Assembly (NCBI GenBank): GCA_963806185.1
Contig: CAWDXE010000007.1
Location: 224,001-288,000, forward strand
DNA: 64,000 nucleotides
From: an uncultured candidate division Zixibacteria bacterium
GTDB taxonomy: Bacteria > Zixibacteria > MSB-5A5 > GN15 > FEB-12
Direction: 5' to 3'
Position 1 is the stretch's first letter. Every line of letters begins with the position of its first letter. The notes below the pieces were generated by a model. It saw only the letters and a list, made by a program, of their open reading frames with translations, was not told the origin of the DNA and made no database searches. Shown here piece by piece: positions 35,270 to 55,327 of this stretch. The translations under genes were made by a program, and so were the position numbers.

Positions 35270-36391
35270 CTAGTCTTCGATCATCTCCACATTTGCCCGG
35301 GGCACGATAGCTCGCTCACCTGTCTCCAGCTCAACTTCAAGCACACGCGCCGACGATTCCGATTGCAGTTTCTGCAGCGGTGAGGGGAGTTCGGTCACTT
35401 TGCCGAGCTGACCGAAATAAGGGTGCCGAATAATTCGAATCGGCGAACCAATCTTAAGTCCTTCGACCTGCCCGCCGTTGTCGGCGGCCAAAGCCTTTTC
35501 GGAGATCTTTGGAACGACGACTTCGGGTCGAATGACGCCGGCGCGAATCTGTGTGGCGCCATTAATACACGCCAGTTCGCCTTCATGCTTCTTCAACAAG
35601 TCGAATGTCTTGTGGGCCATGTTGATCTGGCCGAATCCTTCGGTGACCACCAGCGTGATGCCGATTTCCTCCGAGCCGGTGATGGCGACACCGATATCGT
35701 AGCCGAGGAAATCACGCAGGTCTTTATCGTCAAAGCCGCCGACGACAATCCCTTTGACGCCCAGTTCGATTGCCTTCTTGAGTGCGGGCGCTGTCACAAT
35801 CGAGCCTCCGACGACGATCTTTCCTTTCATCTCGGGGACGATGAGTTCCGGCGAGAGGATAGTCCTGGGATCAGCCGTCGCCACCTTGACGGGGCCGGAT
35901 ACCTCGCCGCCGATGCCGAAAATACCCTGCACGAACGACGCCTGGCAGGAAACGACCACACCCTCGTTGGGAATCACGCTGACCACCTCTCCGACGAGGT
36001 ACGCCTTCACCTCGACCGGAGTCGGTTCGGCTCGCTGCAGGACCTGGCCGGTAACATGCGAAATCGATTCAATTGTCCCATTAATCGTGGCGTTGCAGGA
36101 ATTCTTGAAGATGAACAACGTCGTCGACTGGGCAATGAGCTCGCCTTCCTTGATGGGATCGCCGGCCTTCTTCGTCATGTGCATGGCGATATCTTCCGGC
36201 GGAATGCCCAGTTTGTTGGCGACGTTTATGGGGACGACCGCGCCCGGAAGCAAAGTGCGCGCAACAACCGTGTCGGGCTGTACCTTGTCACCGACCTTGA
36301 CCAGCACGTCTCCCTTCAACGGGAGAATGCGGTTTTTCTTCACCAATATCTTCTCAGTTACTTTTAATCCAGGCGTATACGCGTGGCCCAT
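35270..36391 (-). CDS. Uncharacterised soluble protein (hybrid-barrel-like repeats, alpha/beta core, KOW/SH3-like tail); candidate partner of the GlmL-like ATPase
   Basis: VLVKVGDKV and KKAGDPIKEGELIA...GTIESI lipoyl/RnfC-N-like motifs; AIELGVKGIVVGG core; LKIGSPIRII...GQLGKV tail. Confidence 0.8.
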   Translation of the reverse strand: MGHAYTPGLKVTEKILVKKNRILPLKGDVLVKVGDKVQPDTVVARTLLPGAVVPINVANKLGIPPEDIAMHMTKKAGDPIKEGELIAQSTTLFIFKNSCNATINGTIESISHVTGQVLQRAEPTPVEVKAYLVGEVVSVIPNEGVVVSCQASFVQGIFGIGGEVSGPVKVATADPRTILSPELIVPEMKGKIVVGGSIVTAPALKKAIELGVKGIVVGGFDDKDLRDFLGYDIGVAITGSEEIGITLVVTEGFGQINMAHKTFDLLKKHEGELACINGATQIRAGVIRPEVVVPKISEKALAADNGGQVEGLKIGSPIRIIRHPYFGQLGKVTELPSPLQKLQSESSARVLEVELETGERAIVPRANVEMIED

Positions 36392-36420
36392 GGGGCTACC
36401 CTTTCTCTAACCGGGATGGG

Positions 36421-37167
36421 TTACTTGTTTGCTCTGCGGCGGCGAAGCCGGATAATCACGATGAGCAGAATCACAAACAGTCCGCTGTACGGAACCCAAT
36501 TCCATCTGGCTTTCTTCTTTTCCGGCTCGGCCTTGGTGACCTTTACTTCTTCCTTTGGCAGAGCGGATTGTATGTCGGTCGTGAACGATGCCACGATATC
36601 TTTGAATTCGGGAATGCTCTTGTCCATGAGGGAATCAGGCGCATAGAAAAAGAAATTCGCGATGCCCCGATCGTAGAACTTCATCACCATCAGGTTTCGC
36701 TTGACCGCCTGACCGCCTTCCGTCACCCGGCTGAGGACCGACATAGTATTGGTCGACGCGTCGAAGGTCGGCTGGTCGGACGCCAGGTTGGTGAGGAAGT
36801 TCCCTTGCGGCGCGTACTTGATGTCCTTGCCGAAGGTCTTCGACAATAATTCCTTAACCGAATCCACCTGCTTGGTGGACAGCGCGCCGACTGTATCCAC
36901 GGTGACTATGAGGTATTCGGCAGCATAGAAGGGGTTCGACGTCGCCGGGGCGAACACCGCCTCATACAGATACATTTCAGCGGTGGCCTGGTTTTGCTGC
37001 AAATAGTAATCGACTGTTCGAGTGTCGAGTCGGTCCCATCCCGCGGGATAGGTAATCGCGAACTTGCCGTTAAACGACACAAACGACTCGGCCGAAGCGC
37101 CCGCGGCGACCAACGTCACCAGAGCGACAATCAGGGACACGATGGCATAACGACTGGTACGTTTCAC
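36421..37167 (-). CDS. Exported protein with C-terminal membrane anchor
   Basis: Signal peptide ending ASA, 'FAITYPAGW' PsbP-like start, C-terminal TM + RRRRANK. Confidence 0.7.
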   Translation of the reverse strand: MKRTSRYAIVSLIVALVTLVAAGASAESFVSFNGKFAITYPAGWDRLDTRTVDYYLQQNQATAEMYLYEAVFAPATSNPFYAAEYLIVTVDTVGALSTKQVDSVKELLSKTFGKDIKYAPQGNFLTNLASDQPTFDASTNTMSVLSRVTEGGQAVKRNLMVMKFYDRGIANFFFYAPDSLMDKSIPEFKDIVASFTTDIQSALPKEEVKVTKAEPEKKKARWNWVPYSGLFVILLIVIIRLRRRRANK

Positions 37168-37178
37168 AACTCGTCCTC

Positions 37179-39042
37179 TCAGCGCAGAATCACGCCGTCT
37201 TTGGCCGGATAAATGTCAAGTTCGACCATCCACTTGTTCAGGTAGGAGACGCGCTCCTGTTCGCTGAGCTGCGACAGGTCAAACGGGCGGCCCCGTCCGT
37301 CGAGAATGATCCCGACCACGCCGCCGTGAATCTCCTTCTCAACCTTTACGCCGTTGCCCAGACCGCAGTTGTAGCCACGCTCCGGCTCAAAGGTCGCTTT
37401 GCAGGTTTTCGGGAGGCCGTTGTCCTGCAGGCCCAGTTTGAACAGCTTCATTTCCAGATGATTGAGCGTGCCGCTCACGGTGCCGTCCGGCAGCTCGATC
37501 GTGTATTTCATGACCGGTCCCGGCTTCTTGCTCGTCCCCGCCGGCGCGATGCAGGTGCCCAGGTGGATGAGGCAGTCCTTTTCGAATACTTCCGTTGCCG
37601 CCTTCGGCTGTACCTCGGTCAGTACGCCGAGCTGCGGCATCATGAAGATCGAATCCACGGCGAGTCGGGTGACTCCTTCCGGCATGAAGGAGTCGATCAT
37701 CATGAGCGCCGATTGCTGGCGGCGCGGAGCGTGCGACAGCACGCCGCCTGAGCCGATGAGCATATCGAGGGTCATCATGTTCACAATCGTCGCGCCGGAA
37801 GCCGACTGCTCGAAAGCGTCGGCGATGGTACGCTGCTGCTGGACGCCCTTCAGCACCGAGGCAAAGCTCTTGTGCTGAATGAAGGCGAGGCGGAGCGCTT
37901 CCTTGGCGATCGCCTGTTCGAAAATCAGTTCTTCCATCGACTGCGGGATGGTGGTCGGGCGGATCATCTTGTTCTTGACTCGGTTGCGCAGGTCGCGTTC
38001 TTCCATGACAAACGGCACCCAACGCATCACCATCGGCAGGGTTGCTTCGGCGAAAACGTTTGAAATCGAGTACGACATCCCCAGGTTGGCCGACACCGTC
38101 CGGTTAAATACCGGCGTCTTGCCATCGGGGCGAAAGACCGAAAAAACGTCAGTCGTGGCGCCACCGATGTCGACGCCCACTGCTTCAATCTTATACTGTT
38201 CGGCGATGGTCTGAATGATCAATCCGACCGCGCCGGGAGTCGGCATAATCGGTGCGTCGGCCCAGTCCATCAACTTCTTGTAGCCAGGAGCCTGTGCCAT
38301 CACGTGTTCCATGAACAGTTCGTGGATTTCTTCGCGGGCCGGGCCGAGATTCTCGCGCTCCAGCACGGGGCGAAGGTTGTCGACCATGCGCAGATCAACT
38401 TTGGAAGAGAGCGTTTCCTTGACAGCGTCCCGGGCCTGGACATTTCCGGCGTAGATGATCGGTAGTTTATACCCCGTGCCGAGGCGGGGGCGGGGATCTG
38501 CCGCCGAAACCAGTTCGGCAATTTCGACCACGTGCGTGGTCGTGCCGCCGTCGATGCCGCCTGAAAGCAGTATCATGTCCGGGCGAAGATGGCGGATTCG
38601 CTCAATCTGCTGGTGGGGGAGACGTTTGTCGTTGGACGCGATCACGTCCATCACGATTGCTCCCGCGCCCAGGGCGGCGCGTTCGGCTGATTCGGCCGTC
38701 ATCGACCGGACCACACCGGCCACCATCATCTGCAGTCCTCCGCCGGCGGACGATGTCGAGATGAAAACGTCGGTGCCGGTTCGACCGCTGGCCGGACTGA
38801 TGAACTTGCCCTGCTCGTCGAGAATCTTGCGGCCGGATAAGTTCTTCGAGTTCAGCGACGGCGTTTAGTACGCCCATGGTTACATCTTCAAACGGCGCTT
38901 CGACCGTTGTCGGTGCCTCACCACGGGACACCAGCCGGTATTCGCCGTTTACGTATTCAATGAGGATTGCCTTGGTCGTCGTCGAGCCGCAGTCGGTGGC
39001 GACGATTACTTTGATATCGTTCTGGTTCGCAAACTTGGCCAT
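37179..39042 (-). CDS. GlmL (glutamate mutase L)-like ASKHA ATPase (frameshift ~38838)
   Basis: ATDCGSTTTK, TSSAGGGLQM, LSGGIDGG, YAGN, MPTPGAV, VDIGGATTDVFS, RTVSANLGMSYS and GSGGVLSHAP. Confidence 0.85.
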
Positions 39043-39460: not shown

Positions 39461-40360
39461 ATGAATACTATCTTCCATGACTCGTCGGTCGGCGATGATA
39501 TCCGTCGCCAACAGCTCTACCGGGGCCAGCTCTACGTATTTTCGCCGCGCCCATCGACCATCGCTCTTTGCGACTTCGCCAAACAGATGATAGTCGACGC
39601 CTTTAAGCCGCTCGATCCGCGTACCGCCCAGTTTGACATGCCGGTCGAGACATACGCCGCGCTGCTGGCCGACTTCAAGCCGAAATTCATTCATCACCCG
39701 GAATCAAAAAGACTGCTTCAAGCGGTGCTCCGCGAGTTCGGCTGCGACCTGCAGCAGACCTATTTCGACGTCCCCCGCATTCGGACCTCGACCTCGGATA
39801 ACTACCTGACTACCGGTATCGCTTACGCTTTCCATCCGCACCGTGACACTTGGTACTCGGCGCCGCAATTCCAATTGAACTGGTGGTTGCCGGTTTTTGA
39901 CATCGTGCCGGAAAACGGCCTGGCCTTTCATCCCAAATACTGGTACACGCCGCTCAAGAACAGCTCTCGCGTCTACAATTACGCCGAGTGGAACAAGACC
40001 AGCCGCCAGAACGCCGCCCAGCATATCAAAGTTGATACGCGCGTCCAGCCGAAGCCGGAAGAAACAGTAGAACTCGATCCGCAGATCCGACCCATTTGTC
40101 CGCCCGGTGGATTGATATTGTTTTCGGCAGCGCACCTGCACTCGAGCGTGCCGAATACGTCGGGCTATACTCGCGTGAGCATAGATTTCCGCACCGTGCA
40201 TCTGGGCGACGCCGCGAACGGGATCGGCGCGCCGAATATCGATTCGCTGTGCACCGGCACGACCATGGCCGACTATCTGCGGGCGACTGATCTCGCGCAC
40301 ATCCCGGAAGAGGTCATTCGAAAATACGATACGCCTCCGCCGGCGTCGGTGGCGTCATAA
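39461..40360 (+). CDS. Putative Fe(II)/2-oxoglutarate dioxygenase (PhyH-like)
   Basis: HRD (HxD) motif, NWWLP, distal HLH and RVSIDFR. Confidence 0.65.
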   Translation: MNTIFHDSSVGDDIRRQQLYRGQLYVFSPRPSTIALCDFAKQMIVDAFKPLDPRTAQFDMPVETYAALLADFKPKFIHHPESKRLLQAVLREFGCDLQQTYFDVPRIRTSTSDNYLTTGIAYAFHPHRDTWYSAPQFQLNWWLPVFDIVPENGLAFHPKYWYTPLKNSSRVYNYAEWNKTSRQNAAQHIKVDTRVQPKPEETVELDPQIRPICPPGGLILFSAAHLHSSVPNTSGYTRVSIDFRTVHLGDAANGIGAPNIDSLCTGTTMADYLRATDLAHIPEEVIRKYDTPPPASVAS

Positions 40361-40569
40361 GCATTCTCATAGGTCGACGGTGGCTTCTTTGCCGAAATCG
40401 GCAGAGAAGCCGCCCATTCTTCGTCGCTCTGCCTACTGCTCTTCAGTTTTGATTCTGCTGATAATCGTTGACCCTGTTCCGCACAACCCGTTTATTGCCC
40501 CCAAGCATTTATTCACCCGGTACTGTTGTAGTTCGCGCGAGCCGAAGGATTTGGAAGAGGTATTACGAA

Positions 40570-41517
40570 ATGGAATTTCATTCGATTGGTCAATCTGATC
40601 TTCGCGTTGCCCGACTCGCCTTCGGCGGAAATGTCTTTGGCTGGACGGTTGATCAGACGACCTCCTTTGAATTGCTCGACGCGTTTGTCGATGCCGGCTT
40701 CAATCTGATCGATACGGCCGACGTTTATGCGACCTGGCTCCCGGCCGGCACCGGCGGCGAGTCGGAGACGATTATCGGGCGCTGGATGAAAGCGCGCCGC
40801 AATCGCGACAAAGTGATCATCGCCACCAAGGTCGGGCACGAGTTGTCGCCTGAAAAGAAGGGACTGGCCAAGGAGTACGTCATGCAGGCCGTGGAAGACT
40901 CTCTCCGACGACTGCAGACTGATTATATTGACTTGTATCAGGCGCATAAGGATGACCCGGTTGCTCCGCAGGAAGAGTCTCTGGCGGCTTTTGATCAATT
41001 GGTGAAACGGGGGAAGGTGCGGGTGATAGGCGCATCGAATTTTAAGGCCGAGCGGCTGGCGAGCGCCCTTGCGATCAGTGAAGAAAAGCACTACCCCAGG
41101 TACCAGTGCCTGCAACCGTGTTACAATTTATACGACCGAGTCGACTTCGAGGGCGAGCTCGAGGCGCTCTGTCTTGAGAAACAGATCGGCGTGATCCCAT
41201 ACTTCTCTCTCGGCGCCGGTTTCTTAACCGGCAAGTACAGATCCGAGTCCGATTTGTCGCAGAGTCCTCGCGGGACACGGGTGAAAAAATATCTGAACGA
41301 GCGCGGCTTCCGCATCCTGGCGGCCCTGGATGAGGTGGCAGCCGAGACGTCGGCCTCTCCCAGTCAGGTGGCCATTGCCTGGCTTTTGACGCGCCCGAGT
41401 GTTACGGCGCCGATTGCCAGCGCCACGACCATGGCCCAGCTCAAGAGCCTCATCGGGGCAACCCGGTTGCGACTCACTCCGGATCAGGTGAACCGCCTCA
41501 CTCAGGCCGGTGCCTGA
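40570..41517 (+). CDS. Aldo/keto reductase
   Basis: DTADVY, IATKVG, SLRRLQTDYIDLYQAH, IGASN and GFLTGKY. Confidence 0.93.
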   Translation: MEFHSIGQSDLRVARLAFGGNVFGWTVDQTTSFELLDAFVDAGFNLIDTADVYATWLPAGTGGESETIIGRWMKARRNRDKVIIATKVGHELSPEKKGLAKEYVMQAVEDSLRRLQTDYIDLYQAHKDDPVAPQEESLAAFDQLVKRGKVRVIGASNFKAERLASALAISEEKHYPRYQCLQPCYNLYDRVDFEGELEALCLEKQIGVIPYFSLGAGFLTGKYRSESDLSQSPRGTRVKKYLNERGFRILAALDEVAAETSASPSQVAIAWLLTRPSVTAPIASATTMAQLKSLIGATRLRLTPDQVNRLTQAGA

Positions 41518-41715
41518 CCGTCGCCAGTCGACGCTCTGACCAATTGTTCGTGTCTCGCGAGCGCGGAGCCCGCAGTGTGCATTGTTTGAACACAAACGGA
41601 TGGCGCTCCCATGGCGTGTTTCGCGAATTCGCTTTTCCGAATGGCCGAGCGTATCAAGCTTTAGAATCGTTACCCGATATATTTAAGAGTCGCTTACGGC
41701 GTAATAGAGAGGCGT

Positions 41716-42294
41716 ATGCACCGTTCTGAATCTGACAAGATAACCATTAGACGTGGATTTGTCGCCATTACGACCCTGGCCATCCTACTCTACGCGAGCG
41801 CACCACAGCTCACTACCGCACAATCGTCCGACAACGACAGTTACAAGGGCGACTTCATTGTCAAACTGCCGAATTACGTCGAGTGGCCCGCGGGAAAAGG
41901 GCCCGACGCTTCAGGTGCGGTAACGATTGGGGTGATCGGTACGCCAAGTTGCCTGGGGCAATTGAAGACTGCCGCTGCCGCACGGACCGCTGAGGGAAAG
42001 AAGACCGAGGTCAAATCGCTGGCGATTGGCGACAATTATGCGGGGTGCCAGATCATCTTCTTCCAGACCTGTGACAAGGCCGAGTTGGCACAGATACTCA
42101 AGAAAGCCGGCGTTCTGCCGGTTCTCACCGTAGCCGATTGCGCCGGATTCGCCAAATTCGGCGTGATGTTGAGCTTCTTCGAAGAAACCGTCGACGGCAA
42201 GCCGAAAGTAAGGTTCGAAGTGAACACACTGGCCGTGGGCGATGCCCAACTCAAGATAAATTCAAATCTCCTCAAGCTGGCGAAGATCATATAA
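41716..42294 (+). CDS. YfiR-family (DUF4154) periplasmic protein
   Basis: Signal peptide; NYVEWP, CQIIF, VLTV, VRFEVN and INSNLLKLA motifs. Confidence 0.82.
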
Positions 42295-42346
42295 CGGGGC
42301 GATGACCGACCGGCAACGAGGCCACGACGTAAGAAAGGCGCGGGTC

Positions 42347-44002
42347 ATGCTGAGATTCGTTGATTATCCGATCAAGGTCAAACTTGCCTTTATGATAGTG
42401 GCAACTACGCTTGGCGCGCTGGCGGTAGCCTTCGCCATATTTGTCGTAAATGACCGCGACGCTGCGAAGACCGCGATGGTCAACCACCTGACCATTCTCG
42501 CTCAAACGGAGGCTTCCAATTGCGCCAGTGCGGTGAGTTTTGACGATGCCGCGACGGCCACCGAACAACTGGCGGCGCTGGGCTTTGACTCGCATATCGT
42601 CGCCGCCACCATCGTGCGAAAAGACGGACGGATTTTTGCCGAGTACAATCCCAGGAGTGTCCAGTACGGCCCAACAAGCTACCCGGCGGCCAACAGTCAT
42701 GAATTCAGGAACGATGAGCTGGTCGTCTCCCGCGATATCAGCGCTGAGAGCAAGGTGATCGGATTCGTCATTATCCGTTCCGATCTGACGGCGTTGAGCG
42801 AGCGGTTCTGGTGGTTTATTCGTATGTCCGGCGCGACGATCACCATTACGTTCCTATTGTCCTGGCTGATTGTCTGGCTGGGTAACAGGATTATCGCCCG
42901 GCCGCTCGTTGAACTGACCAGATCAGCCAACGCGATAGCCCTGGGTGACATTCAGCAGGACGTCAATTTCGCTTCCAAAGACGAAATCGGACGATTGTAT
43001 GAATCGTTTCGCCATCTAATGACTTATCTCAAAGATCTGGTCGGCGTCGCGCAGCAGGTGGCGGCGAATAATCTTGCCGTGGAGATTACGCCGAAGTCTG
43101 AACAGGATCTGCTCGCCCGCGCTTTCAAGCAAATGGTGCTCAACCTGAACAGTATCATCGTTCAGTTGAGCGAACAGAGCAAGAGCATGGTCTCGGCGGC
43201 GTCCGAGATCAGCAGTTCATCCGAAGAAATGTCGGCTGGCGCCCGCGAACAGGCCAAGCGGATCGCGGAGATATCGTCCACGGTCGAGGAATTCAGTGTC
43301 TCTGTGCACGAATCGGCCACCAACGCGAGTACGGCTTCATCGGTCTCGCAGAGTGCTTCCGATTGCGCCTCGACGGGCGGGCAGCTGGTCACCGAGACCA
43401 TTCGCGAAATGGTTCGGACCGAGACCGAGGTTCGGCAATCGGCCGACACGATCGGCAAACTGGCGAAATCGTCCGAGGAAATCGGTGACATTATCGGTGT
43501 GATCAGTGACATAGCGGACCAGACAAATCTCCTGGCCCTTAATGCCGCCATCGAAGCTGCGCGGGCTGGAGAGTCTGGACGGGGATTTGCCGTGGTTGCC
43601 GATGAAGTTCGCAAGTTGGCTGATCGAACCGTGCATGCCACAAAACAGATTGCCACCATGGTACAAGGCATCCAGAAAGAGACCGGACTAGCGGTCAAAA
43701 CGATGCACTCCGGCATAGAGCAAGTGCACAAGGGACGGGAACTGGCCGATAAGGCGGGATCGAGCCTCAATGAAATTCTCGCTACCAACCAGCGGGTAGC
43801 CGAGATCATTCGTCAGATTGCCCTGTCAACGGAAGAGCAGTCGACCGCGGCCACTGATGTCGCCCGAAACCTTGAGCAGATCTCCGTTGTCACCAAGGAA
43901 ACAGCCGCCGGGGCGGTACAATCGGCCCAGGCCGCCGAGCAATTGAATGTACAGGCCGAGACGCTGCAGAGGATGGTCAGTCAGTTTCGACTCGCCAAGT
44001 GA
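42347..44002 (+). CDS. Methyl-accepting chemotaxis protein with YfiN-like (CHASE8-type) periplasmic domain and HAMP
   Basis: TM, '[18 protein letters not shown]' sensor, TM, HAMP (DEIGRL), then [37 protein letters not shown]. Confidence 0.9.
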
Positions 44003-44020
44003 GCCGACGGAACGACAGGG

Positions 44021-44064
44021 AAAAAGAACCGGGTTGGACGATTGTCCAACCCGGTTTTGCTTTT
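44021..44064. terminator. Bidirectional intrinsic terminator
   Basis: A-run, AACCGGGTTGGAC-GATT-GTCCAACCCGGTT, T-run, between convergent genes. Confidence 0.85.
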
Positions 44065-44087
44065 GCGGACCGATGAAAGGGCCTGAT

Positions 44088-45935
44088 TTATTGATCGCGC
44101 TTCGGTGCGGATACCGATTCGGGGCGTTTGACGTCGATCGGTTGAGGTAGCGGCTGACCGGCAGCGGCGACATTCTGGGTCGGGCGCTTGGCAGCAACCG
44201 AAGCCTCCATTTGCCGCCGGTAGTCAATACCCTTTTCTTTGGCGAATCCGAGTTCTTCGGCGTGGAGGTAAAGGTTTCTGTCACCCTCATCTTTGACCAA
44301 CTCTGTCTGAATCGGGTGAGCAACCGCGTAGGCGTCATGACGAATGCCGGTCACCATCCAACTGACTTTCACGTTCGGCTTATCGGTCTTGATGCTGAAT
44401 TGATTGTTGGCGATTTCAGAAGAGACAATCGCCTGTGCAAACTGCCCGATGCAAGTGAGTTGATAGCGAAAGTCCTTGTTGAGCGCGCCAAACCAGTCGG
44501 AGAGAGTAACGGTAGCATTGCCGGACGCGTCGGTGGTTATCACGCCGTCGTAGATATTCTTCATGTCGGGTGACTCAACGAACGAATGCTGAAGGTACTT
44601 GTTGGCTGGATCCAGGGGATGGTCAATGCGGAACGCCCCTGCCCCCTTCGTGAGGGTACCGGTAACAGTGCAATTGCCCTGGAAGTAACCAGCGTAGTTA
44701 GTCCCGCCACCGGAGGCTGAGCCAAAGACGCCGAATTTGGATCCTCCAGCGCCGGACGCTACCCCGTAGACGGCGACTTTGCCTCCCGTGCCGTCGCCAG
44801 AAGCGTTTCCGTACAAGCCGTAATACGAAGCGCCTCCGTTCTGAGCGACCAACCCCTCGGCGCCGATGAACCCGCCCTCAAACAGGCCGCCGAAGCCCCA
44901 GTTGTCGGCCGGGGTCGACTTGCCGTATACGGCAACGGCATCACTGGAGGACGTGTTGGTGAACTCGGCGTGGATTACGTGAGTGTTGCTCGATGGATAC
45001 CCTGACACGAATTGTGCCGCGCGAGAGCTGTCGCTGTGCACGTAAACACCTCTGCCGCGCTGAAAATAACCGGAATAGCCGCCGGCCCAGCCGTCAGAGA
45101 AGACGCCGATGCCACTATCGCTGCTGCAGGAGATCGCAGCCCCGGTGCCGAGACTCCGCGCATAGATGCAGCCGGAATTGCCATCGGCGATGAAGGTCGC
45201 CGCCATACCGCCGGTTACGCCCAGACAACTGGCTGAAACTGCCTGCGGATAATTCCACGTTGACAGATAAGAGCCAACGCCGAAGAGTCCAGCGGCCGAC
45301 GTCGTTGATGCGTTGAATGCCCGCACGGCATTGTCGTAGATACCGCTGCCATTGGCCTCAAAGAGGCTCGCCGTAAAGCCGCCGGTTTTGGCTCGGACCC
45401 GCAACTGTAAGCCGGCGGCAAGCGACTTCGTACCAATCAATACACTCTTCATAGTGTCCGCTTCCTGAAGATAGGAACCGGAAATTTCCCAGCCGGAAGC
45501 AAACGCCGACGGCAGTTGCCCGCCCAATTTATCGGCATTGTCGGCGTGCGAGGCCTGGTAGGCAAAGGCCCCGGTCGTGAAACGGGTGCGCGGAGAAATC
45601 TCCGGATCTACGTCGACTGTGATCCCGACGGTTAGAAGAGTGTCGGTTGCCCAATTCACGACCGGCAGCGCCGGCTGCGGCGACTGGCCGAGTTTGACTT
45701 CAAACAAGCCGTCGGTGAAGGTCACCGAGATGAAACCGCTGTTCCAAAGCGCGGCGCTGGTCCCGTCGTAAATCGTGAATTTCACCAGTTTGGCGCCGGT
45801 GTACGGCACACCGGTGCTGCTGGTCAGCCGACCCTGGTAGCTGATCAAGTGCGGAACCTCGGCCAAGGCCGCGCCGCATAACAGCAGTGACACGACGACC
45901 AGGTTGATTACCATGTGAATACGCGAGTGTGACAT
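44088..45935 (-). CDS. Secreted fibre-like protein with Gly-rich repeats and an intramolecular-chaperone-like C-terminus
   Basis: Signal peptide, VPHLISYQGRLT domain, AVYG/GVFG/GLYG repeats, and FRIDHPLDPANKYLQHSFVESP...NIYDG. Confidence 0.65.
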   Translation of the reverse strand: MSHSRIHMVINLVVVSLLLCGAALAEVPHLISYQGRLTSSTGVPYTGAKLVKFTIYDGTSAALWNSGFISVTFTDGLFEVKLGQSPQPALPVVNWATDTLLTVGITVDVDPEISPRTRFTTGAFAYQASHADNADKLGGQLPSAFASGWEISGSYLQEADTMKSVLIGTKSLAAGLQLRVRAKTGGFTASLFEANGSGIYDNAVRAFNASTTSAAGLFGVGSYLSTWNYPQAVSASCLGVTGGMAATFIADGNSGCIYARSLGTGAAISCSSDSGIGVFSDGWAGGYSGYFQRGRGVYVHSDSSRAAQFVSGYPSSNTHVIHAEFTNTSSSDAVAVYGKSTPADNWGFGGLFEGGFIGAEGLVAQNGGASYYGLYGNASGDGTGGKVAVYGVASGAGGSKFGVFGSASGGGTNYAGYFQGNCTVTGTLTKGAGAFRIDHPLDPANKYLQHSFVESPDMKNIYDGVITTDASGNATVTLSDWFGALNKDFRYQLTCIGQFAQAIVSSEIANNQFSIKTDKPNVKVSWMVTGIRHDAYAVAHPIQTELVKDEGDRNLYLHAEELGFAKEKGIDYRRQMEASVAAKRPTQNVAAAGQPLPQPIDVKRPESVSAPKRDQ

Positions 45936-46473: not shown

Positions 46474-47760
46474 TTGCTCGTGTCCCGAATCAAAACGGCG
46501 CCTCTCTCTTTTATTGTCTGGCTCGCCCTGACAGTCCTCGTCGCCTCCACTCCGGGAGCGGCGCAAGAGAAAGTCGCGGCGATTACCGACACGTTACCCT
46601 CTCCCTCTCCACTCACCCCGGACACTCTGGCCATCGCCAAAACGCCCCATCCACCCACGGATGTTCATGCTGAAGATCTGGACAATGACGCCGGCGGATC
46701 GCTCGAAATTGTCTGGACCTTGTCGTCTGACGACGTTTCTCCCTCCGGCAGAGTTCGACATTATCGAATCGAGCGGGCGAAATTGACCGGCGGCCAACCT
46801 GGCGGGTTTACTGAAGTCGGCGACGTATCGGCGGGGACCAAGGTATTTGACGACGGCCGGACCAGCGACGACGAGACATACATATATAGGGTCGTTGCGG
46901 TAAACGATTCCCTCTTTGATGACGAACCGGTCTGGCGATTTGTTGCGGCATCGGCCCCGAGCAATTCTGCGAAATCTTCGGCCCAGTGGTTCGACATGAG
47001 ACGGATCAATGTCTTCGTCGGCGTACTCCTGTTATGTGGCTTCATCATCTATTATATATCTCGGGCCAAGGCGGGTAAGGAGATCTTCATCCGCAAGATT
47101 GCCGGTCTTGAAGCGGTTGATGAAGCAGTCGGTCGAGCCACCGAAATGGGCAAGAAGATTTACTATATCCCCGGCTCTCAGGATATGGACAACGTACAGA
47201 CCCTGGCTGGAATCACCATCCTGGGCCGTGTCGCTGAACTGGCGGCGCAATACGATTCCAAATTGGAGGTGCCGGTTTCCCGCTCGCTCGTGATGGTGAC
47301 CTGCCGAGAAGTTTTGAAGGAGTCGTATGCGCGAGCCGGGCGAGTTGACGCGTTTCACGACGACCAAGTGAAATATCTGACCGACGATCAGTTTGGATAT
47401 GCGGCCGCGATTGACGGTATGGTGGTACGGGAACGACCGGCCACTATTTTTCTGATGGGCTCATTTTATGCCGAATCGCTGGTTCTGGCCGAGACCGGCA
47501 ACAGTGTCGGCGCGATTCAGATTGCCGGTACCGGGCAGCCGTCGCAGTTGCCCTTCTTCGTGGCGGCATGTGACTACACGCTGATCGGTGAAGAATTGTT
47601 CGCCGCCTCAGCTTATCTAAGCAAGGAGCCCCGGCAATTGGGCTCGCTGAAGGGGCAGGACATCGGCAAGGGGCTGATCCTGGTTTGTATCGTCATCGGC
47701 ATTATTCTGGAGACCTTCCACATCTGGAATATGCACAGGCTTTTTACGGTGATCGAATAG
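46474..47760 (+). CDS. Module 1 subunit A: Fn3-like ectodomain + DUF6754-like domain
   Basis: Signal peptide, Fn3-like region (Y-YRVVAV), TM, IRKIAGLEAVDEAVGRATEMG, QIAGT...QLPFFVAACDYTLIGEELFAASAYL, C-terminal TM. Confidence 0.85.
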   Translation: MLVSRIKTAPLSFIVWLALTVLVASTPGAAQEKVAAITDTLPSPSPLTPDTLAIAKTPHPPTDVHAEDLDNDAGGSLEIVWTLSSDDVSPSGRVRHYRIERAKLTGGQPGGFTEVGDVSAGTKVFDDGRTSDDETYIYRVVAVNDSLFDDEPVWRFVAASAPSNSAKSSAQWFDMRRINVFVGVLLLCGFIIYYISRAKAGKEIFIRKIAGLEAVDEAVGRATEMGKKIYYIPGSQDMDNVQTLAGITILGRVAELAAQYDSKLEVPVSRSLVMVTCREVLKESYARAGRVDAFHDDQVKYLTDDQFGYAAAIDGMVVRERPATIFLMGSFYAESLVLAETGNSVGAIQIAGTGQPSQLPFFVAACDYTLIGEELFAASAYLSKEPRQLGSLKGQDIGKGLILVCIVIGIILETFHIWNMHRLFTVIE

Positions 47761-47761
47761 T

Positions 47762-48409
47762 ATGCGGCGCGAAGTACCATTGCTGATCACCGGAATTGTC
47801 GGAATCATATTCGTCATTCAATATTTCATCCCCCATTTTCCATTCGGCCGCATGGCCAATTGGTTTGCCGACTGGTTCAGTATTGTTGCAGCCTGTGCGG
47901 TGTGGCTGGGTGTCCTGAATCTTCTGAAAATGTCGCTTGAAAAGATCGTCGCTCGTAAGGCGGATTGGGGCTACGCCATTATCATTGTCGTCTGTTTCTT
48001 CCTGATAACGATTATTGGGTTTGCCGAGGGGCGGGATTCGCGCAACGTGGGCACCGGCTTCGACTGGCTGTATACCTACGTGTATTCGCCGCTCTCGTCA
48101 ACGATGTTTGCCATTCTGGCGTTTTTCGTCGCCTCGGCATCCTATCGGGCTTTTCGCGCCAGGAATCTTGAAGCGACCTTGCTTTTGCTTTCCGCCTTTT
48201 TTGTGATGCTCGGCCGCGTACCGGTAGGTGATCTGCTCACCGGATGGCTGCCGGATTCCATGCAGCTCTCCGGCCTGGCCACGTGGATTATGAACTTTCC
48301 GAATACGGCCGGCCAGCGCGCCATTATGATCGGCATCGCTCTGGGTACCGTGTCGTCGTCATTGCGCATTATCCTCGGGATCGAGCGTTCATATCTGGGA
48401 GGGGAGTAG
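47762..48409 (+). CDS. Module 1 subunit B: polytopic membrane protein
   Basis: About 6 TM; MFAILAFFVASASYRAFRAR and RAIMIGI...LGIERSY. Confidence 0.85.
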   Translation: MRREVPLLITGIVGIIFVIQYFIPHFPFGRMANWFADWFSIVAACAVWLGVLNLLKMSLEKIVARKADWGYAIIIVVCFFLITIIGFAEGRDSRNVGTGFDWLYTYVYSPLSSTMFAILAFFVASASYRAFRARNLEATLLLLSAFFVMLGRVPVGDLLTGWLPDSMQLSGLATWIMNFPNTAGQRAIMIGIALGTVSSSLRIILGIERSYLGGE

Positions 48410-48412: not shown

Positions 48413-49432
48413 ATGACCGAACACGCCAAAGCCAATCCCAAAATGGAGATCATCGCAACAGCGGCGGCGTTCGTTGCGCTAATCCTCATCTATGTGGGGC
48501 GGCAGAATGACTGGTTCCCGGCGATCGTGATGGGAACGCTGGTGTCGACGGTGGTCGTGTGCCTGATCTTTGCCGGGCTCCTCTGGATTCTGGTGCGTAC
48601 GATTCGGGGTAAACAGGCCGAGCGCCGCATTGTCTTTCTCTTTATTGCGCTGGCAGTGTCGCTGCCGTTGTTCATGAGCCTCAAGCAGACCATCAAGATT
48701 TCGCCGGAAGCCGCCACCTTTTATGCCGGGTTGGAGAGTCTCCCGGCGGGTTCCAAAGTGCTCGCCACTTTTGACTACGATCCGCCGTCGGCGCCGGAAC
48801 TCCAGCCGATGGCAGAATCGTTCTTCCGCTATGCGTTTCACAAGAATCTAAAGGTGATCATCATGGGGCTCTGGCCGCAAGGACCTCAGCAGGCGAACCT
48901 GGCGCTTAACAAGATTCTCGCTGAGGATGATATCAAGGCGATGGGGCTGCGGTATGGCGTTGATTATGTCAATCTCGGTTTTCAATCGGGCAACGAGTTT
49001 GTTATTCAGCGCATGGGTTCGGATATTCGATCAATGTTCCCCACCGACATGAATGGAACGCCGTATGACAGTCTGCAACTTGTGCACAACGTGAAGAACT
49101 TCTCCAACATTGATTATTCCTTCAATTTGTCAGCGGGGTATCCCGGTACCAAGGAGTGGGTGTTAGTGGCGGTAGACCGGTACGGCCTCAAGATCGGCGC
49201 CGGCAACACGGCCGTGCAGGTGACGGAAATGTACCCGTACGTTCGCACGGGCCAGCTTATCGGCATTCTGGGCGGCATGAACGGCGCAGCGGAATTTGAA
49301 AAGCTTACCAAGGTACTCGGCAAAGGAACCCGGTTCATGTTGTCGCAGTCATTCGCGCACCTGATGGTCATTGCCTTCATCCTTATCGGGAATGTCGCCT
49401 ATTTCAGGCTCGAGCGGAAAGGACGGAAGTAA
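48413..49432 (+). CDS. Module 1 subunit C: membrane-anchored protein with large soluble domain
   Basis: N-terminal TMs, FDYDP...ELQPM, GVDYVNLG, YPY...GILGGMNGAAE, C-terminal TM. Confidence 0.85.
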   Translation: MTEHAKANPKMEIIATAAAFVALILIYVGRQNDWFPAIVMGTLVSTVVVCLIFAGLLWILVRTIRGKQAERRIVFLFIALAVSLPLFMSLKQTIKISPEAATFYAGLESLPAGSKVLATFDYDPPSAPELQPMAESFFRYAFHKNLKVIIMGLWPQGPQQANLALNKILAEDDIKAMGLRYGVDYVNLGFQSGNEFVIQRMGSDIRSMFPTDMNGTPYDSLQLVHNVKNFSNIDYSFNLSAGYPGTKEWVLVAVDRYGLKIGAGNTAVQVTEMYPYVRTGQLIGILGGMNGAAEFEKLTKVLGKGTRFMLSQSFAHLMVIAFILIGNVAYFRLERKGRK

Positions 49433-49438: not shown

Positions 49439-50107
49439 ATGGAAAGCGGATTCATGTACCACTTCGCGCTCTGGGTAGCGGCCTTTCTCACGCTCGGCAT
49501 TATCTCATTTCTGTACCGTGACAACGTTTGGTACAAGATCTGCGAAGCGGTATTTGTCGGCATTTCGGCCGGGTACTGGTTTGTCACCTACTTCTGGGAC
49601 AACATCTACGGCAAATTCTGGATCGGCGTCTTTCCGCCTGGCGGCGGCGCCCGCACTGACGACTGGTATATGCTGCTCTTTGGAGGTGTACTGGGGATTC
49701 TCATGTTGCTGCGGCTGGTGCCGAAAATTGGTTGGATTTCGCGATGGCCGCTGGCCTTCATCGTCGGCGCCACGGCCGGTCTGTACCTGATTACGTACTT
49801 CGCGTCCAACGTGATGGTGCAGCTCCAGGATACGGTGCGACCTCTTTTCGGCGCCGCGGGCGAGACAGTCTCAATGTACGACGCCATCGGCAACATTGTC
49901 GTTGCCGTTGGCACCTTCAGCGGTCTGATCTATTTCTTCTTTTCCAAAGAACATAAGGGCGCCTTTGGAGCTACCGCCAAGGTGGGCATTTTCTTCCTCA
50001 TGATTACTTTCGGGGCATCATTCGGCTATACGGTTATGAGCCGTATGTCATTGCTCATCGGGCGCATTGATTTTCTCTTCACCGATTGGTTAGGATTGAT
50101 ACGCTAG
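49439..50107 (+). CDS. Module 1 subunit D: polytopic membrane protein
   Basis: AAFLTL..SFLYRDN, VGISAGY, YFFFSKEH and FGASFGYTVMSR. Confidence 0.85.
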   Translation: MESGFMYHFALWVAAFLTLGIISFLYRDNVWYKICEAVFVGISAGYWFVTYFWDNIYGKFWIGVFPPGGGARTDDWYMLLFGGVLGILMLLRLVPKIGWISRWPLAFIVGATAGLYLITYFASNVMVQLQDTVRPLFGAAGETVSMYDAIGNIVVAVGTFSGLIYFFFSKEHKGAFGATAKVGIFFLMITFGASFGYTVMSRMSLLIGRIDFLFTDWLGLIR

Positions 50108-51357
50108 TGCCACGACACGTCTCCATACATCGCAGGGCATACTCCCGTTTTGCGCTCTCGCTATTGGGTGTCTGCTTCTTTGCGGTCAATTCCCTCCTGG
50201 CCCAGGCCGACGCCGGCCTCACCGGAGATTCGTCTATTGTCGCCGTCCCGGTTGCACCGGCCACGTCGTTGATTGCGGAGGACCACAAGTACGACAACGG
50301 CGATGCCATCAGTTTGACCTGGGTGCCGTCGATCGACGACCAACTGCCGGCAGGTAAGCTCACCGGATATGCGCTGTTTCGCATCACCAATTCCTCCGCA
50401 CCCGAAAAGATCGCCGACCTGTTCCCCGGCGCCAACAATTATCTCGACGAGGGTCTCAGCGGCGACAGCAGCTACTCCTACTATCTTGTAGCGCTCGCCG
50501 GCAATGCGCGCTCGGAATCGATTCACACGGCGCAACTGACCCCCCACGTGGAATGGCTGAACCTCTCCCGGCTCAATTTGCTGCTCATCGCGGTCGTCTT
50601 CGGCGGTGCCGTAATCTACTTTATCGAGACCGCTCGCCGAGGGAAGAAGTATTTCATTCGCAAGATCGCCGGGCTGGATGCGGTCGACGAGGCAATCGGC
50701 CGGGCCACCGAGATGGGCCGGCCCATCCTCTTCATTCCAGGCATTCAGGATATGGACGACGTGCAGACCATTGCCGCCATTACGATTCTGGGGCGGATCT
50801 CTCGCACCATCGCCGATTATGATTCAAAAATTCTCATGCCCGTGTCACGTTCGCTCGTGATGACGGCCGCTCGTGAGACCATCAAGACGTCGTTTGCGGC
50901 GGCGGGTCGCCCGGATGCGTACAACGATGATTTTGTGCACTACGTCACTGATGAACAATTCGGCTACGTGGCGGCAGTTGACGGTATTATGGTGCGCGAG
51001 AAACCGGCCGCGACTTTCTTTCTCGGCGCGTTTTTCGCCGAATCGCTGATCCTGGCCGAAACCGGGAATTCGATCGGCGCCATCCAGATTGCCGGCACGG
51101 CCATGCCCACGCAGATCCCGTTTTTTGTCGCGGCCTGCGACTTTGCGCTGATTGGGGAGGAGCTGTTTGCAGCTTCGGCGTATCTGTCGGGTGAGCCGAA
51201 GCAACTCGGGTCGCTGAAGGGGCAAGATGTCGGCAAGGGAATCGCGCTGGCGACGATTCTAGTCGGCACGGCCGCCGTCACCATTGCCCTGGCCTGGCAT
51301 AATGAGTTCTTTGGTTCCGTGCTCCGGGTGCTTAACTCTGTCTTCAGGACGAACTGA
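50107..51357 (+). CDS. Module 2 subunit A (Fn3-like + DUF6754-like)
   Basis: Paralogue of A1: IRKIAGLDAVDEAIGRATEMG and FVAACDFALIGEELFAASAYL. Start uncertain; GTG 50107 overlaps the D1 stop. Confidence 0.85.
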   Translation: MPRHVSIHRRAYSRFALSLLGVCFFAVNSLLAQADAGLTGDSSIVAVPVAPATSLIAEDHKYDNGDAISLTWVPSIDDQLPAGKLTGYALFRITNSSAPEKIADLFPGANNYLDEGLSGDSSYSYYLVALAGNARSESIHTAQLTPHVEWLNLSRLNLLLIAVVFGGAVIYFIETARRGKKYFIRKIAGLDAVDEAIGRATEMGRPILFIPGIQDMDDVQTIAAITILGRISRTIADYDSKILMPVSRSLVMTAARETIKTSFAAAGRPDAYNDDFVHYVTDEQFGYVAAVDGIMVREKPAATFFLGAFFAESLILAETGNSIGAIQIAGTAMPTQIPFFVAACDFALIGEELFAASAYLSGEPKQLGSLKGQDVGKGIALATILVGTAAVTIALAWHNEFFGSVLRVLNSVFRTN

Positions 51358-51362
51358 CGGTT

Positions 51363-52034
51363 ATGAAACGCGAAGTCCCACTGCTCATCACCCTGTTTGT
51401 CGCCTCGCTCCTGATCATTTCCGTATTCATCCCTCCACTTGAGAGTGCCGGAGAGAATTTTACTCTGTTCTTCGACATCATCGCCGTCTTTGCATTCTTC
51501 CTTGGCGGGGGGAACCTGCTGCGTGTCCATCTGGACAAAGTGATAAGTCGACGCGACCAATGGGGATATTCCGTAGTGACGCTCGCCGGTTTCCTGGTCA
51601 TGCTGATCGCGGGCATCTCCAAGATCGGCTTGGCGACTATCGCCACGCCGGTGACCAATGACGGCGGCTGGTTCCAGACGATCTTTGCCAACGTGATGTC
51701 GCCGCTCAATTCGTCGATGTATGCGTTGCTGGCGTTTTTTGTCGCGTCGGCTTCGTACCGGGCGTTTCGCGCCAAAAATCGCGAGGCAACTCTGCTGCTG
51801 ATTGCTGCGTTCATTGTTCTTCTGGGTCGCACACCGTTTGGCACGGTGCTTACATCTTGGGTGCCGGACAATTTCAGTCTGCTGCAAATTCCCAATTTGG
51901 CGATTTGGATCATGAACTCACCCAATCTGGCCGGCCAGCGGGCAATTATGATCGGCATCAGTCTCGGCGTGGTGTCAATGTCGTTGCGCCTCATCCTCGG
52001 GATTGAACGAAGCTACCTGGGGGATGACAAATGA
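51363..52034 (+). CDS. Module 2 subunit B
   Basis: MKREVPLLIT, AFFVASASYRAFRAK and GQRAIMIGI...LGIERSY. Confidence 0.85.
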   Translation: MKREVPLLITLFVASLLIISVFIPPLESAGENFTLFFDIIAVFAFFLGGGNLLRVHLDKVISRRDQWGYSVVTLAGFLVMLIAGISKIGLATIATPVTNDGGWFQTIFANVMSPLNSSMYALLAFFVASASYRAFRAKNREATLLLIAAFIVLLGRTPFGTVLTSWVPDNFSLLQIPNLAIWIMNSPNLAGQRAIMIGISLGVVSMSLRLILGIERSYLGDDK

Positions 52035-52951
52035 CGGCGTCCCATATCGGCCTGATCATATCTCTCTGTATCATCGGCGGCGGCCTGGTCTGGATGCTCG
52101 TGCGTACGATCAGGGGCAAGGTTGTCGAGCGCCGCATCGTTTTTCTCTTCATCGCCGTCTCTGTACTGGCGCCGATTCTCTTCCAGTTCACTTTCACCGA
52201 GACGGCCTCGCCGATTGTCAAAGGTGTCTTCGAACGGATAGAGGATCTTCCCCCGCGCTCAACCGTGCTGATCTCGTTTGATTTTGACCCGGCGATGGCG
52301 CCGGAAGTCCATCCGATGGCCAACGCACTTGTCCGGCACTGCCTGGTGAAGAAGCACAAAGTGGTCTTCATGGCCCTCTGGGCCACCGGTCAATCGCTGC
52401 TCAATCAGACACTGACCAATGTCGTAAGAGCCGAATTCCCCGAGGTCACCGAAGGGATCGATTACATCAATCTCGGCTACAAGGCGGGCAATGAGGGCGT
52501 ACTCAACGTCATCGTCACCGACCTGCGGAAGATGTTCCCCAACGATGTCAACAACCGCCCGCTCGACAGTATTCCCTGGATGAAAGACATCAAGTCTTGT
52601 CGCGACTTCAATTTGATCCTGACCATCGGCGGTGGTAAACCGGGAGCCAAAGAATGGGTGCTGTTTGTCGGCGATCCGGGCAATGTGCCGATCGCGGCCG
52701 GCCTCGCCGCGGTGTCTACGCCGCAGTTGTATCCCTATTATCCGAAACAACTTGTTGGCCTGTTGGGCGGAATCAAAGGGGCGGCTGAGTACGAATCGGA
52801 ACTTCGTAAGCGATATCCTCAGTTCCTGGCCGTCCCCGCACCTGGCCTTCTTATGATGGGACCACAGACGCTGGCTCACATGGTCATCATCATCTTCATC
52901 ATTTTCGGCAATATTGCCTACTTCCGTGGGCGGAAGCGAGGGGAGAAGTGA
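52031..52951 (+). CDS. Module 2 subunit C
   Basis: ERRIVFLFIA, FDFDP...EVHPM, GIDYINLG and YPY...GLLGGIKGAAEYE; ATGA overlap with B2. Confidence 0.85.
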   Translation: MTASHIGLIISLCIIGGGLVWMLVRTIRGKVVERRIVFLFIAVSVLAPILFQFTFTETASPIVKGVFERIEDLPPRSTVLISFDFDPAMAPEVHPMANALVRHCLVKKHKVVFMALWATGQSLLNQTLTNVVRAEFPEVTEGIDYINLGYKAGNEGVLNVIVTDLRKMFPNDVNNRPLDSIPWMKDIKSCRDFNLILTIGGGKPGAKEWVLFVGDPGNVPIAAGLAAVSTPQLYPYYPKQLVGLLGGIKGAAEYESELRKRYPQFLAVPAPGLLMMGPQTLAHMVIIIFIIFGNIAYFRGRKRGEK

Positions 52952-53766
52952 TGAAGCGCTCAACCGTGATCCTCTCCATCATCATAGCCATTCTGTTCAT
53001 CATCAGTTGGGCCCTCAAGGCTCGGACTGCAGCGCCGGACGACAACGGAATGCTCAATGGATTTCTGGTGACTTTCGCCGCCTTTCTGACGTTGGCGATC
53101 TTCTCGTTCCTGTACCAGGACAATCCGTTTTACAAATTTGCGGAGCATCTTTATGTCGGCGTTTCCGCCGCCTATTGGATGACACTTGGATTCTGGTCGA
53201 CTATTGTTGGAAACCTGATTCCGCGGTTGTCGGAGAGAATATCGGGTTGGTTCCTGGTACCGTACAATCCGGGGGAATACAATTTCATTTACTGGATACC
53301 GGTCATACTCGGTCTGCTGTTGCTGATGCGGCTTTCGCCCAAAGGGGGGTGGTTATCGCGCTGGGCGCTGGCCTTCATCGTCGGCACGACGGCTGGATTG
53401 AATTTTGTGCGCTATCTCCGCTCCGATTTTGTGGAACAGGTTTCAGCCAGTTTTCTCCCGCTGCTCGGGACAAACTGGCAGGGGTTTGGCGCATTCATCG
53501 CCAACATAGATTTGAATGCCTCAGGTCAGTTCGTGGCTATTTTGTCCAACTGGGTAATATTTACTGGCGTTGTGTGCGGAATTATCTATTTCTTCTTCTC
53601 CAAAGAGCACACCGGCGCTTTCGGCAAGGCCTCGCGCTACGGAATCTGGATTCTTATGATCACCTTTGGCGCCGCATTCGGCTACACGGTGATGGGCCGT
53701 ATCTCGCTCTTGGTTGGACGACTGACATTTCTTTTCAGGGACTGGTTGGGAATGACGATTAGTTAA
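52951..53766 (+). CDS. Module 2 subunit D
   Basis: AAFLTL..SFLYQDN, VGVSAAY, YFFFSKEH and FGAAFGYTVMGR. Confidence 0.85.
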   Translation: MKRSTVILSIIIAILFIISWALKARTAAPDDNGMLNGFLVTFAAFLTLAIFSFLYQDNPFYKFAEHLYVGVSAAYWMTLGFWSTIVGNLIPRLSERISGWFLVPYNPGEYNFIYWIPVILGLLLLMRLSPKGGWLSRWALAFIVGTTAGLNFVRYLRSDFVEQVSASFLPLLGTNWQGFGAFIANIDLNASGQFVAILSNWVIFTGVVCGIIYFFFSKEHTGAFGKASRYGIWILMITFGAAFGYTVMGRISLLVGRLTFLFRDWLGMTIS

Positions 53767-53792: not shown

Positions 53793-55317
53793 ATGCAATA
53801 CATTCTACGATTCTGTCTGGCCATGGCAATGCTATCTGCCGTTGCTTCGGCCCAGACCGATCCCCCGCAGGCTGCGCCCGGAGATTCGGCCGCGACTGCG
53901 GTGGTGACCGCCACACTTGCCGTTCCGCCGGCACCGCCCACCGAGGTAGCCGGTCGGGACACGAAGAATGATCACGGTCATTCGGTTACGGTGACCTGGC
54001 AAAAATCGGCTGACGATAGCGCCGGGGCCAATACCGTGATCGGGTACCAGGTTTTTCGCTGGATTCCATTTTACATCGATACACTGGACTTGCTTCGCCG
54101 CCGGATCGACTCGGTCGCTCAAAAGCGCGCCGAGTACGAGGTCTACATCGATCGCTCGGGCAACCGGATCAGCTCCGCGACGCCCGAAGCGCAGAAAGTA
54201 ATCCAGGATTCCGTCAGCGGGATGGAAGTCGCGCAGCCGAAACTCGCGGCTCTCGAGAGCCAGTTGCGCGATGAGTTTGAGACTGGCGTGCAGACGCTCC
54301 CCGAGAAGCACAAGTCGTATCCGAACCATGGCGAATTCAGGGCGGTTGGCGCCACCCCCGCCGGGACTACTTTGCTGATCAATTCCGGGTCCAAAGAGAA
54401 GGAATCAGGATCATACATCCCCGACTATTCTGATTTCTACTACAGAGTTGATGCGCTGACGGTCGACACAACGGTGCGATCGTCCTCCGAGGTCTGCGGA
54501 CCGGTGCAATGTAAGGGGCAGTGGTTCAACACCGGGCGTATACCCGTCCTGACCGCGGTCCTGATTTTCGCGGCACTAACCATGTGGTTTGTCTACCGTG
54601 CCAAACGAGGCGCCGACCTCTACGTTCGGCCGCTCGCCGGCATTGAGGCGGTCGACGACGCTATCGGTCGTGCCACCGAAATGGGCAAACCGATTCTTTA
54701 CGTACTTGGTCTGGGCACAGCGGCCGACATTGCCACTATCGCCTCATTCACGATTCTCGGCCGCGTCGCCAAGCGGGTGGCGGAATATCAGACCGACCCT
54801 GATTGTGCCGTGCTACGATCCGATCGTGATGTCGGTCGCACAGGAGGTGGTCAAGTCGTCCTATCTCGACGCCGGCCGCCCTGACGCCTATAAGGAAGAT
54901 CACGTCTATTTCGTCACGCAGTCGCAGTTCGCATACGTCGCTGCAGTCAACGGTATCATGCTTCGCGAGCTGCCGGCGACCAACGTCTACATGGGCAAGT
55001 TCTACGCGGAATCGCTGCTGCTGGCGGAAACCGGGGCGCTGGCCGGGTCGATTCAGATCTCCGGCACCGATGAGGTGTCTCAGATTCCATTCTTCGTCGT
55101 CGCGTGTGACTACACGCTGATCGGCGAGGAACTCTACGCCGCGTCGGCCTATCTTGCGCGCGAACCCCTGCTTCTGGGATCGCTCAAAGCGCAGGATTAT
55201 GCCAAGGCGGCCGTTATCATTCTGGCCATTGTCGGTATGCTGGCGGTCAATATCGGCGCCGCGGCGAATTCTCAATGGCTGATGGCTTTCAAAAACATTT
55301 TCCAGGTCGTGGACTAG
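53793..55317 (+). CDS. Module 3 subunit A (Fn3-like with helical insert + DUF6754-like; frameshift ~54797)
   Basis: VRPLAGIEAVDDAIGRATEMG in fragment 1; FVVACDYTLIGEELYAASAYL in fragment 2. Confidence 0.8.
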
Positions 55318-55327
55318 GAGGGCGCAG

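Follow-up and report, generated by a model that had tools for sequence, protein, structure and literature searches.

What does a GlmL-like ATPase do in a genome in which no glutamate mutase is found? The question was raised by a three-gene unit in a stretch of 64,000 nucleotides from an uncultured Zixibacteria bacterium (contig CAWDXE010000007.1, positions 224,001 to 288,000 of the forward strand), which was analysed as a whole and is called the window below. The unit encodes a predicted ATPase, a protein of 248 amino acids (aa) and a soluble 373-aa protein, here called the partner. A preliminary description of the window had proposed that this unit powers an array of four-gene membrane modules on the opposite strand (subunits A, B, C and D, A being a DUF6754 protein). 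We found that the ATPase and the partner are very probably linked in function to the ABCD modules. The observations behind this view are gene linkage, gene fusions, copy numbers and the lack of partner mutases; for the membrane topology and for how the partner and subunit A fold, we rely on prediction. That the unit directly energises transport by the modules is a tentative reading by analogy with known systems, and we put its probability at about 0.45.

The ATPase and the missing mutase

The unit comprises the following features.

39163-39135, minus strand: sigma-70-like promoter, TTTACA-17-TATACT, 93 bases upstream of the ATPase gene
39042-37179, minus strand: whole ATPase gene (PF13941), in two frames, followed by the co-directional genes for the 248-aa and 373-aa proteins
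38839..39042, minus strand: N-terminal piece of the ATPase, residues 1-68 (DCGSTTTK, phosphate-1), matching PF13941 1-50 (E 8.9e-12, 45 bits)
38841: one-base frameshift dividing the ATPase gene into two frames; relatives are intact
37179..38858, minus strand: main piece of the ATPase (TSSAGGG, DIGGATTD, GSGG) with a C-terminal extension of ~120 aa, matching PF13941 52-450 (E 4.4e-114, 382 bits)
36421..37167, minus strand: 248-aa protein, predicted to be exported and C-terminally anchored, with hydrophobic segments at its N- and C-terminal ends
35270..36391, minus strand: 373-aa partner, soluble, with no hydrophobic segment; barrel-sandwich hybrid modules, a swivelling beta/beta/alpha domain and a KOW barrel

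The ATPase had been described as a GlmL-like member of the acetate and sugar kinase/Hsc70/actin (ASKHA) superfamily. Both pieces passed the gathering cut-off of the Pfam family PF13941 (MutL/GlmL; 382 and 45 bits against 27). However, an intact orthologue fell below the cut-offs for GlmL (NF040745; 239.5 against 475), TIGR01319 (174.9 against 204) and Or-4 (NF040744; 226 against 600). GlmL/MutL and Or-4 share a homologous core of ~480 aa and the phosphate motifs with this long ATPase (~612 aa), which is 29-30% identical to GlmL, taken from a control locus ordered glmS-glmL-glmE, and to an Or-4-type protein across ~490 aa. The C-terminal extension of ~120 aa is missing from both. The long ATPases also stood apart from GlmL and Or-4 in a quick 36-row tree, for which there is a long-branch warning. 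Judged by its sequence, the ATPase is neither GlmL nor Or-4. It goes together with a swivel-domain partner, either as a pair of proteins or as one fusion, and is linked to membrane modules, whereas mutase genes do not accompany it.

Three motifs (D15-K22, D289-D296 and G428-G431), which we take to be the phosphate-1, phosphate-2 and adenosine motifs of the ASKHA fold, were conserved across 71 ATPase sequences, save for D289G/D296N in 10. These motifs suggest hydrolysis by a predicted actin-fold ATPase. The protein is 75-91% conserved across the phylum, and a sequence search of solved structures gave no relative.

No match to GlmE or OraE was found in the source genome, the assembly of which is 82% complete; the earlier statement had been that no glutamate mutase S or E gene lies in the window. 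A B12-binding DxHxxG protein is likewise absent from the window, as had been stated: DxHxxG occurs only in shadow frames. Among 151 Zixibacteria genomes, glutamate mutase E was over the cut-off in eight, on another contig than the ATPase where both positions were listed, and the lysine/ornithine aminomutase family PF09043 in none, although the positive control worked. GlmE was beside the partner in 0/160 loci (80 from the phylum and 80 more distant). The only B12 mutase found in the source genome, named by eye, is a methylmalonyl-CoA mutase in split form. The genome encodes its own MeaB, and the B12-binding gene of methylmalonyl-CoA mutase lies near the partner in 2/80 distant loci. The GlmE matches of the eight Zixibacteria genomes are open frames of ~650 aa, with no adjoining GlmL in the two loci read. 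A fusion of glutamate mutase S and E (645 aa) was seen at L083:871-2805 and also in L084.

The preliminary description treated the ATPase gene as one open frame. The three genes, their order and their promoter were all found, but the ATPase gene is divided by one base. Its junction was unbroken in 61/61 related loci carrying the N-terminal part. In a public run, a contig of 151 bases that differs in one other letter and has a depth of 2 had one base fewer at 38841. In a test with the proteins of relatives, 6/42 places were flagged as split and three of these were in the ATPase gene; the A3 and C3 subunit genes are each split by a frameshift too. It is likely that the ATPase frameshift is an assembly error, because the junction is intact in relatives, a near-identical contig lacks the base and other genes are split; the read support is one low-depth contig. 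A programmed frameshift was ruled out by the intact relatives and by that contig. Housekeeping genes in the window (2443-11536, 27569-29579 and 58785-61357; thiolase-like, carboxyltransferase, DNA ligase and pyruvate phosphate dikinase) also appeared to be frameshift-split, pointing to an indel-prone assembly.

One soluble unit and several membrane modules

The ABCD array begins 7.4 kb from the ATPase unit and on the opposite strand, as had been described, and its proteins matched no ATPase family in a profile search. Its three modules, and the other two of the source genome, are as follows.

46474..47760, plus strand: A1, DUF6754, with a periplasmic N-terminal part, a transmembrane segment, a cytoplasmic Rossmann domain and another transmembrane segment (predicted)
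47762..48409, plus strand: B1, membrane subunit with ~5-6 transmembrane segments, no family match
48413..49432, plus strand: C1, subunit anchored in the membrane, its soluble domain predicted to be periplasmic, no family match
49439..50107, plus strand: D1, membrane subunit with ~5 transmembrane segments, no family match
50086..53766, plus strand: second module, A2-B2-C2-D2
53793..57673, plus strand: third module, A3-B3-C3-D3, with A3 and C3 frameshift-split
C5:97846-104028 and C7:826517-832373 (other contigs): two further ABCD modules

The source genome encodes the ATPase, the partner and a small helical protein, E (C1:177628-177912), once each, and its complete ABCD modules number five. A single-copy unit facing several modules had been predicted, though the number was given as three. 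Across the 151 Zixibacteria genomes, PF13941 was found in 149, with exactly one match in 134, and E in 150 (single in 149). DUF6754 was present in 151/151, with 730 matches or ~5 copies each. The partner, counted in a second draw of 201 genomes of the same phylum, was present in 199. The apparent loss of the ATPase in G085 and G122 was rejected as an assembly artefact (a scaffold gap in one, where the C-terminal part still shows, and the end of a contig in the other). Both DUF6754 and over-cut-off PF13941 were missing from all 14 control genomes. The ratio of ATPase, partner and E to ABCD is thus 1:1:1 to ~5, from which we infer that the modules share one ATPase unit.

Gene order pointed the same way. 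In the 80 phylum loci, the ATPase was present in 68 and ABCD genes lay within 10 kb of the partner in 31. The arrangement was divergent in 26 of these 31, with a gap of less than 0.75 kb between matches, and in the other five the module followed the partner on the same strand. The 7.4 kb in our window is therefore an insertion. A locus labelled Acidobacteriota turned out to belong to Zixibacteria. By a chance estimate, five modules in 3.3 Mb are expected within 20 kb ~3% of the time.

The distant set consisted of 80 metagenome loci in which the partner was 37-69% identical and the GC content ranged from 0.30 to 0.71. The ATPase was present in 51/80, E in 26/80, at least one of A-D in 22/80 and GlmE in 0/80. 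Four gene orders with ABCD were seen, spread over several of the starred subclades in the tree of the ATPase, and in one distant clade the neighbours are of archaeal type (SUI1 and FEN1-type genes flank the system). Clusters of the partner in the Atlas were commonest in Planctomycetota, Zixibacteria, Chloroflexota and Fidelibacterota. The phylum profiles and the 0/160 loci with GlmE supported the earlier suspicion that this ATPase clade follows DUF6754 and not glmES.

Fusions of the ATPase with the partner occur in P0137, P0211 and L140. Because the genes are fused in some lineages, the two proteins would be expected to form a stable complex. A second type of fusion (919-933 aa), diverged, without KOW and on a separate branch of the tree, was seen at L091:174-2930, L092:9563-12355, L093:2270-5068 and L094:7304-10075. 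Tandem ATPase-partner pairs with the E gene between them occurred in L102, L127, L162, L169 and L174, and their first and second copies fell on separate branches.

The exported 248-aa protein had been counted as a member of the unit. It was dropped from the core, and the small helical E, encoded elsewhere in the genome, was added to it. The gene for the 248-aa protein was in 46/80 phylum loci against 2/80 distant loci, so the protein is a lineage-specific passenger or local accessory; its PsbP-like match was weak (E 0.027, under the cut-off). A gene for a 164-aa membrane protein directly precedes E in the source genome (C1:177092-177912) and in L138, L141, L158, L165 and L170. This protein has no Pfam match and is a possible eighth component.

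How the unit might act

In the structure model of the partner (predicted local distance difference test, pLDDT, 93), a swivelling domain lies at the centre, together with barrel-sandwich hybrid modules and a KOW barrel. For this central domain, enzyme I matched best in fold (Z 9.7, root-mean-square deviation, rmsd, 2.6, 107 aligned), tied with domains of RraA, LdcA, aconitase X and pyruvate kinase. In 134 sequences, no phosphoacceptor His or Cys was conserved in the swivel domain and no column had more than 25% His. The near-invariant residues are T238, T250, E251, T280 and R283; P289 and TEGFG are also conserved. Fold and profile matches to NusG/Spt5 were found as well, and residues 15-371 matched Thermotoga NusG with Z 9.2 at an rmsd of 14.6.

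The model of subunit A (pLDDT 87) has a helix, a Rossmann domain and a second helix, and basic residues place the domain in the cytoplasm. In a second fold look, Sir2 came first (Z 12.0, rmsd 3.4, 140 aligned) and transhydrogenase dIII next, over the whole domain (Z 9.9, rmsd 3.4, 140 aligned). Subunit A likely binds an adenine nucleotide, judging from the model, because these two matches share what we take to be a DHS-like nucleotide-binding fold. Sequence searches of solved structures gave no relative for A or C. Inspection by eye suggested that A and C are inverted homologues, and this was rejected: the profile comparisons were not significant, with first strands in register at a probability of 0.8 and E 0.07. 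A profile comparison of B with D was also negative. No longer fused form of A was found among 2337 candidates, which is weak evidence.

We propose that the ATPase and the partner form the soluble and conserved half of a system of seven proteins, the others being ABCD and E. This half would serve all five modules as one shared, ATP-driven remodeller resembling a reactivase. Since there is no mutase to serve, its likeliest target would be the Rossmann domain of A, and it may dock on this predicted cytoplasmic nucleotide-binding domain. By analogy with glycerol dehydratase reactivase, it might act on A by swivel and release. The simplest output would be solute import, with paralogous modules for different solutes, by analogy with energy-coupling-factor (ECF) transporters. 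A bolder form of the proposal is that a chaperone-like actin-fold ATPase and a swivelling partner drive interchangeable four-subunit modules through a dIII-like cytoplasmic gate. This would be a primary active transporter of a new class, belonging to the core of the phylum and present in archaea, and we consider it doubtful, though quite conceivable.

Several results weigh against the proposal. Within the phylum each part is present almost everywhere and the loci are related, so co-occurrence does not set the parts off from other core genes and is no independent test, though it excludes glmE; the whole-genome counts cover the phylum Zixibacteria only. Among loci of at least 20 kb, ABCD was absent from 15/31 in the phylum and 9/14 in the distant set, and ABCD genes were also missing from the four stretches with second-type fusions that were analysed. 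Ten of the 71 ATPases, all from the archaeal-looking clade (L116, L122, L137, L140, L142, L146, L161, L164, L166 and L168), have GLGGATTN instead of DIGGATTD. Because both phosphate-2 aspartates are lost there, hydrolysis may be weak or different in this clade, which retains the linkage to ABCD. Furthermore, a wide fold search tied the A domain with many unrelated Rossmann domains (Z 8.7-10.2). B, C and D matched no transporter family in profile searches, and C had no named Atlas match.

Part of this also fits a different role, in which the ATPase pair would maintain or control the modules (by nucleotide exchange, reactivation or assembly) while ABCD is run by an ion gradient or does chemistry. 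The nearest named relatives of the ATPase are enzyme accessory proteins. The A domain is similar to domains that bind nucleotides tightly, transhydrogenase dIII and gating RCK domains among them; one ATPase faces five modules that are often unlinked, and the phosphate-2 motif is degenerate in one clade. However, the 75-91% conservation and near-universal retention of the ATPase suit a constant stoichiometric role at least equally, and we regard a maintenance role as rather unlikely. It is improbable that the system is a phosphorelay, or a group translocation like that of the phosphotransferase system (PTS), in which the ATPase would be a kinase and the swivelling partner would pass the phosphate to A, the solute being phosphorylated on entry. 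The best fold matches of the partner are indeed phosphohistidine swivel domains, its three threonines, E251 and R283 are near-invariant, weak Hydantoinase_A and FGGY matches exist, and one module of the source genome comes after a gene for a phosphoenolpyruvate (PEP) utiliser. Against these stand the lack of a conserved His or Cys in the swivel domain and the tied scores of RraA, LdcA and aconitase X, which have the same fold; a PEP utiliser is not among the recurring neighbours of the distant loci.

The extreme conservation of the ATPase, and tolQ within 10 kb of the unit in 40/80 phylum loci and TolQ/ExbB-like genes in four distant loci, would also fit an actin-like platform, such as PilM or FtsA, that anchors or assembles an envelope machine. 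This is quite improbable, as the system adjoins archaeal-type genes, where Tol-Pal is not expected, and an opposite-strand gene stands between the partner gene and tolQ. A partner associated with RNA or RNA polymerase, coupling the membrane state to gene expression, would account for the KOW barrel, the NusG/Spt5 matches and the RraA-like domain. But KOW barrels are common interaction modules, the rmsd to Thermotoga NusG is very high and the second-type fusions do not have KOW; we hold this idea to be very improbable. Little chance is also left for an ordinary reactivase of a coenzyme-B12 enzyme, as is thought for GlmL or Or-4. PF13941 membership, the identity to both proteins and the split methylmalonyl-CoA mutase, with its B12-binding gene near the partner in two distant loci, speak for it; the scores under all three NCBIfam cut-offs, the rarity of GlmE (8/151), the absence of PF09043 (0/151) and the genome's own MeaB speak against it.

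Surrounding genes, known systems and significance

The promoter TTTACA-17-TATACT was kept in 13/13 aligned upstream regions, 12 of them chosen from the closest loci, while the flanking DNA diverges. The titles of the closest relatives of the unit were mostly Zixibacteria. Unrelated genes are inserted between the unit and the array, and other genes lie on either side.

39461..45935: inserted genes (PhyH-like, aldo-keto reductase, YfiR-like with chemoreceptor, 615-aa protein)
44088-45935: the 615-aa exported glycine-rich protein; a Pfam search gave nothing over the cut-off
58052-58420: 122-aa basic open reading frame 3' of the array; a Pfam search gave nothing over the cut-off
30149-34789: tolQ-tolR-tolA-tolB-pal-cpoB-like operon (named by eye), after the unit

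Elsewhere in the source genome, the C5 and C7 modules come after PTS enzyme I-like and sugar isomerase-like genes and are divergent from sugar ABC transporter-like genes (all named by eye). At L172:1083-14429, an OPT oligopeptide transporter gene directly precedes A and opp-like genes follow the partner, which is a weak hint at peptides.

Besides GlmL and Or-4, four known systems can be compared with the present one. According to PMC7674605, glycerol dehydratase reactivase has an Hsp70-like ATPase domain and a swiveling domain, and subunits are swapped on ATP hydrolysis. The ATPase and the partner have the same kind of parts as glycerol/diol dehydratase reactivase, here on two genes or one fusion. 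However, no sequence match was found in solved structures, and the predicted target here is a membrane complex. The fold matches listed for the partner did not include the reactivase, although the swivel fold itself was present. A B12 dehydratase was not among the recurring neighbours of the distant loci, and no genome search was aimed at it.

Group II ECF transporters likewise use one ATPase unit for several scattered membrane modules. However, the ATPase here is predicted to have an actin fold and not to be of the ABC (ATP-binding cassette) type; the membrane subunits match no ECF family, and no ABC-family match was found for the ATPase, the partner or the array proteins. PTS enzyme I and pyruvate phosphate dikinase have a swivelling beta/beta/alpha fold like that of the partner, and the PTS also has a shared soluble unit for several membrane complexes. 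They differ in that the partner has no conserved histidine and the system has ATP-type motifs instead of a PEP-binding barrel. Transhydrogenase PntB has a dIII-fold domain in the cytoplasm after a membrane helix, as the model suggests for A. However, there is no dI-like partner in the gene set, a periplasmic subunit is additional, and none of 77 A sequences matched the PNTB profile with E as high as 1. A literature search, which left out most subscription papers, found no publication on the ATPase/partner/ABCD system, on DUF6754 or on PF13941.

The PF13941 ATPase carries a glutamate mutase protein label in databases, and this label makes it easy to call glutamate fermentation wrongly. From the two fold leads, nucleotide binding by the A domain and ATPase stimulation follow as direct assays. 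The system probably has a central role, because almost all genomes of this uncultured phylum retain it, with ~5 module copies. ATP-driven solute transport uses, to our knowledge, ABC, P-type or rotary ATPases. If our reading is true, a transporter that runs on an actin-fold ATPase would add another design to these.

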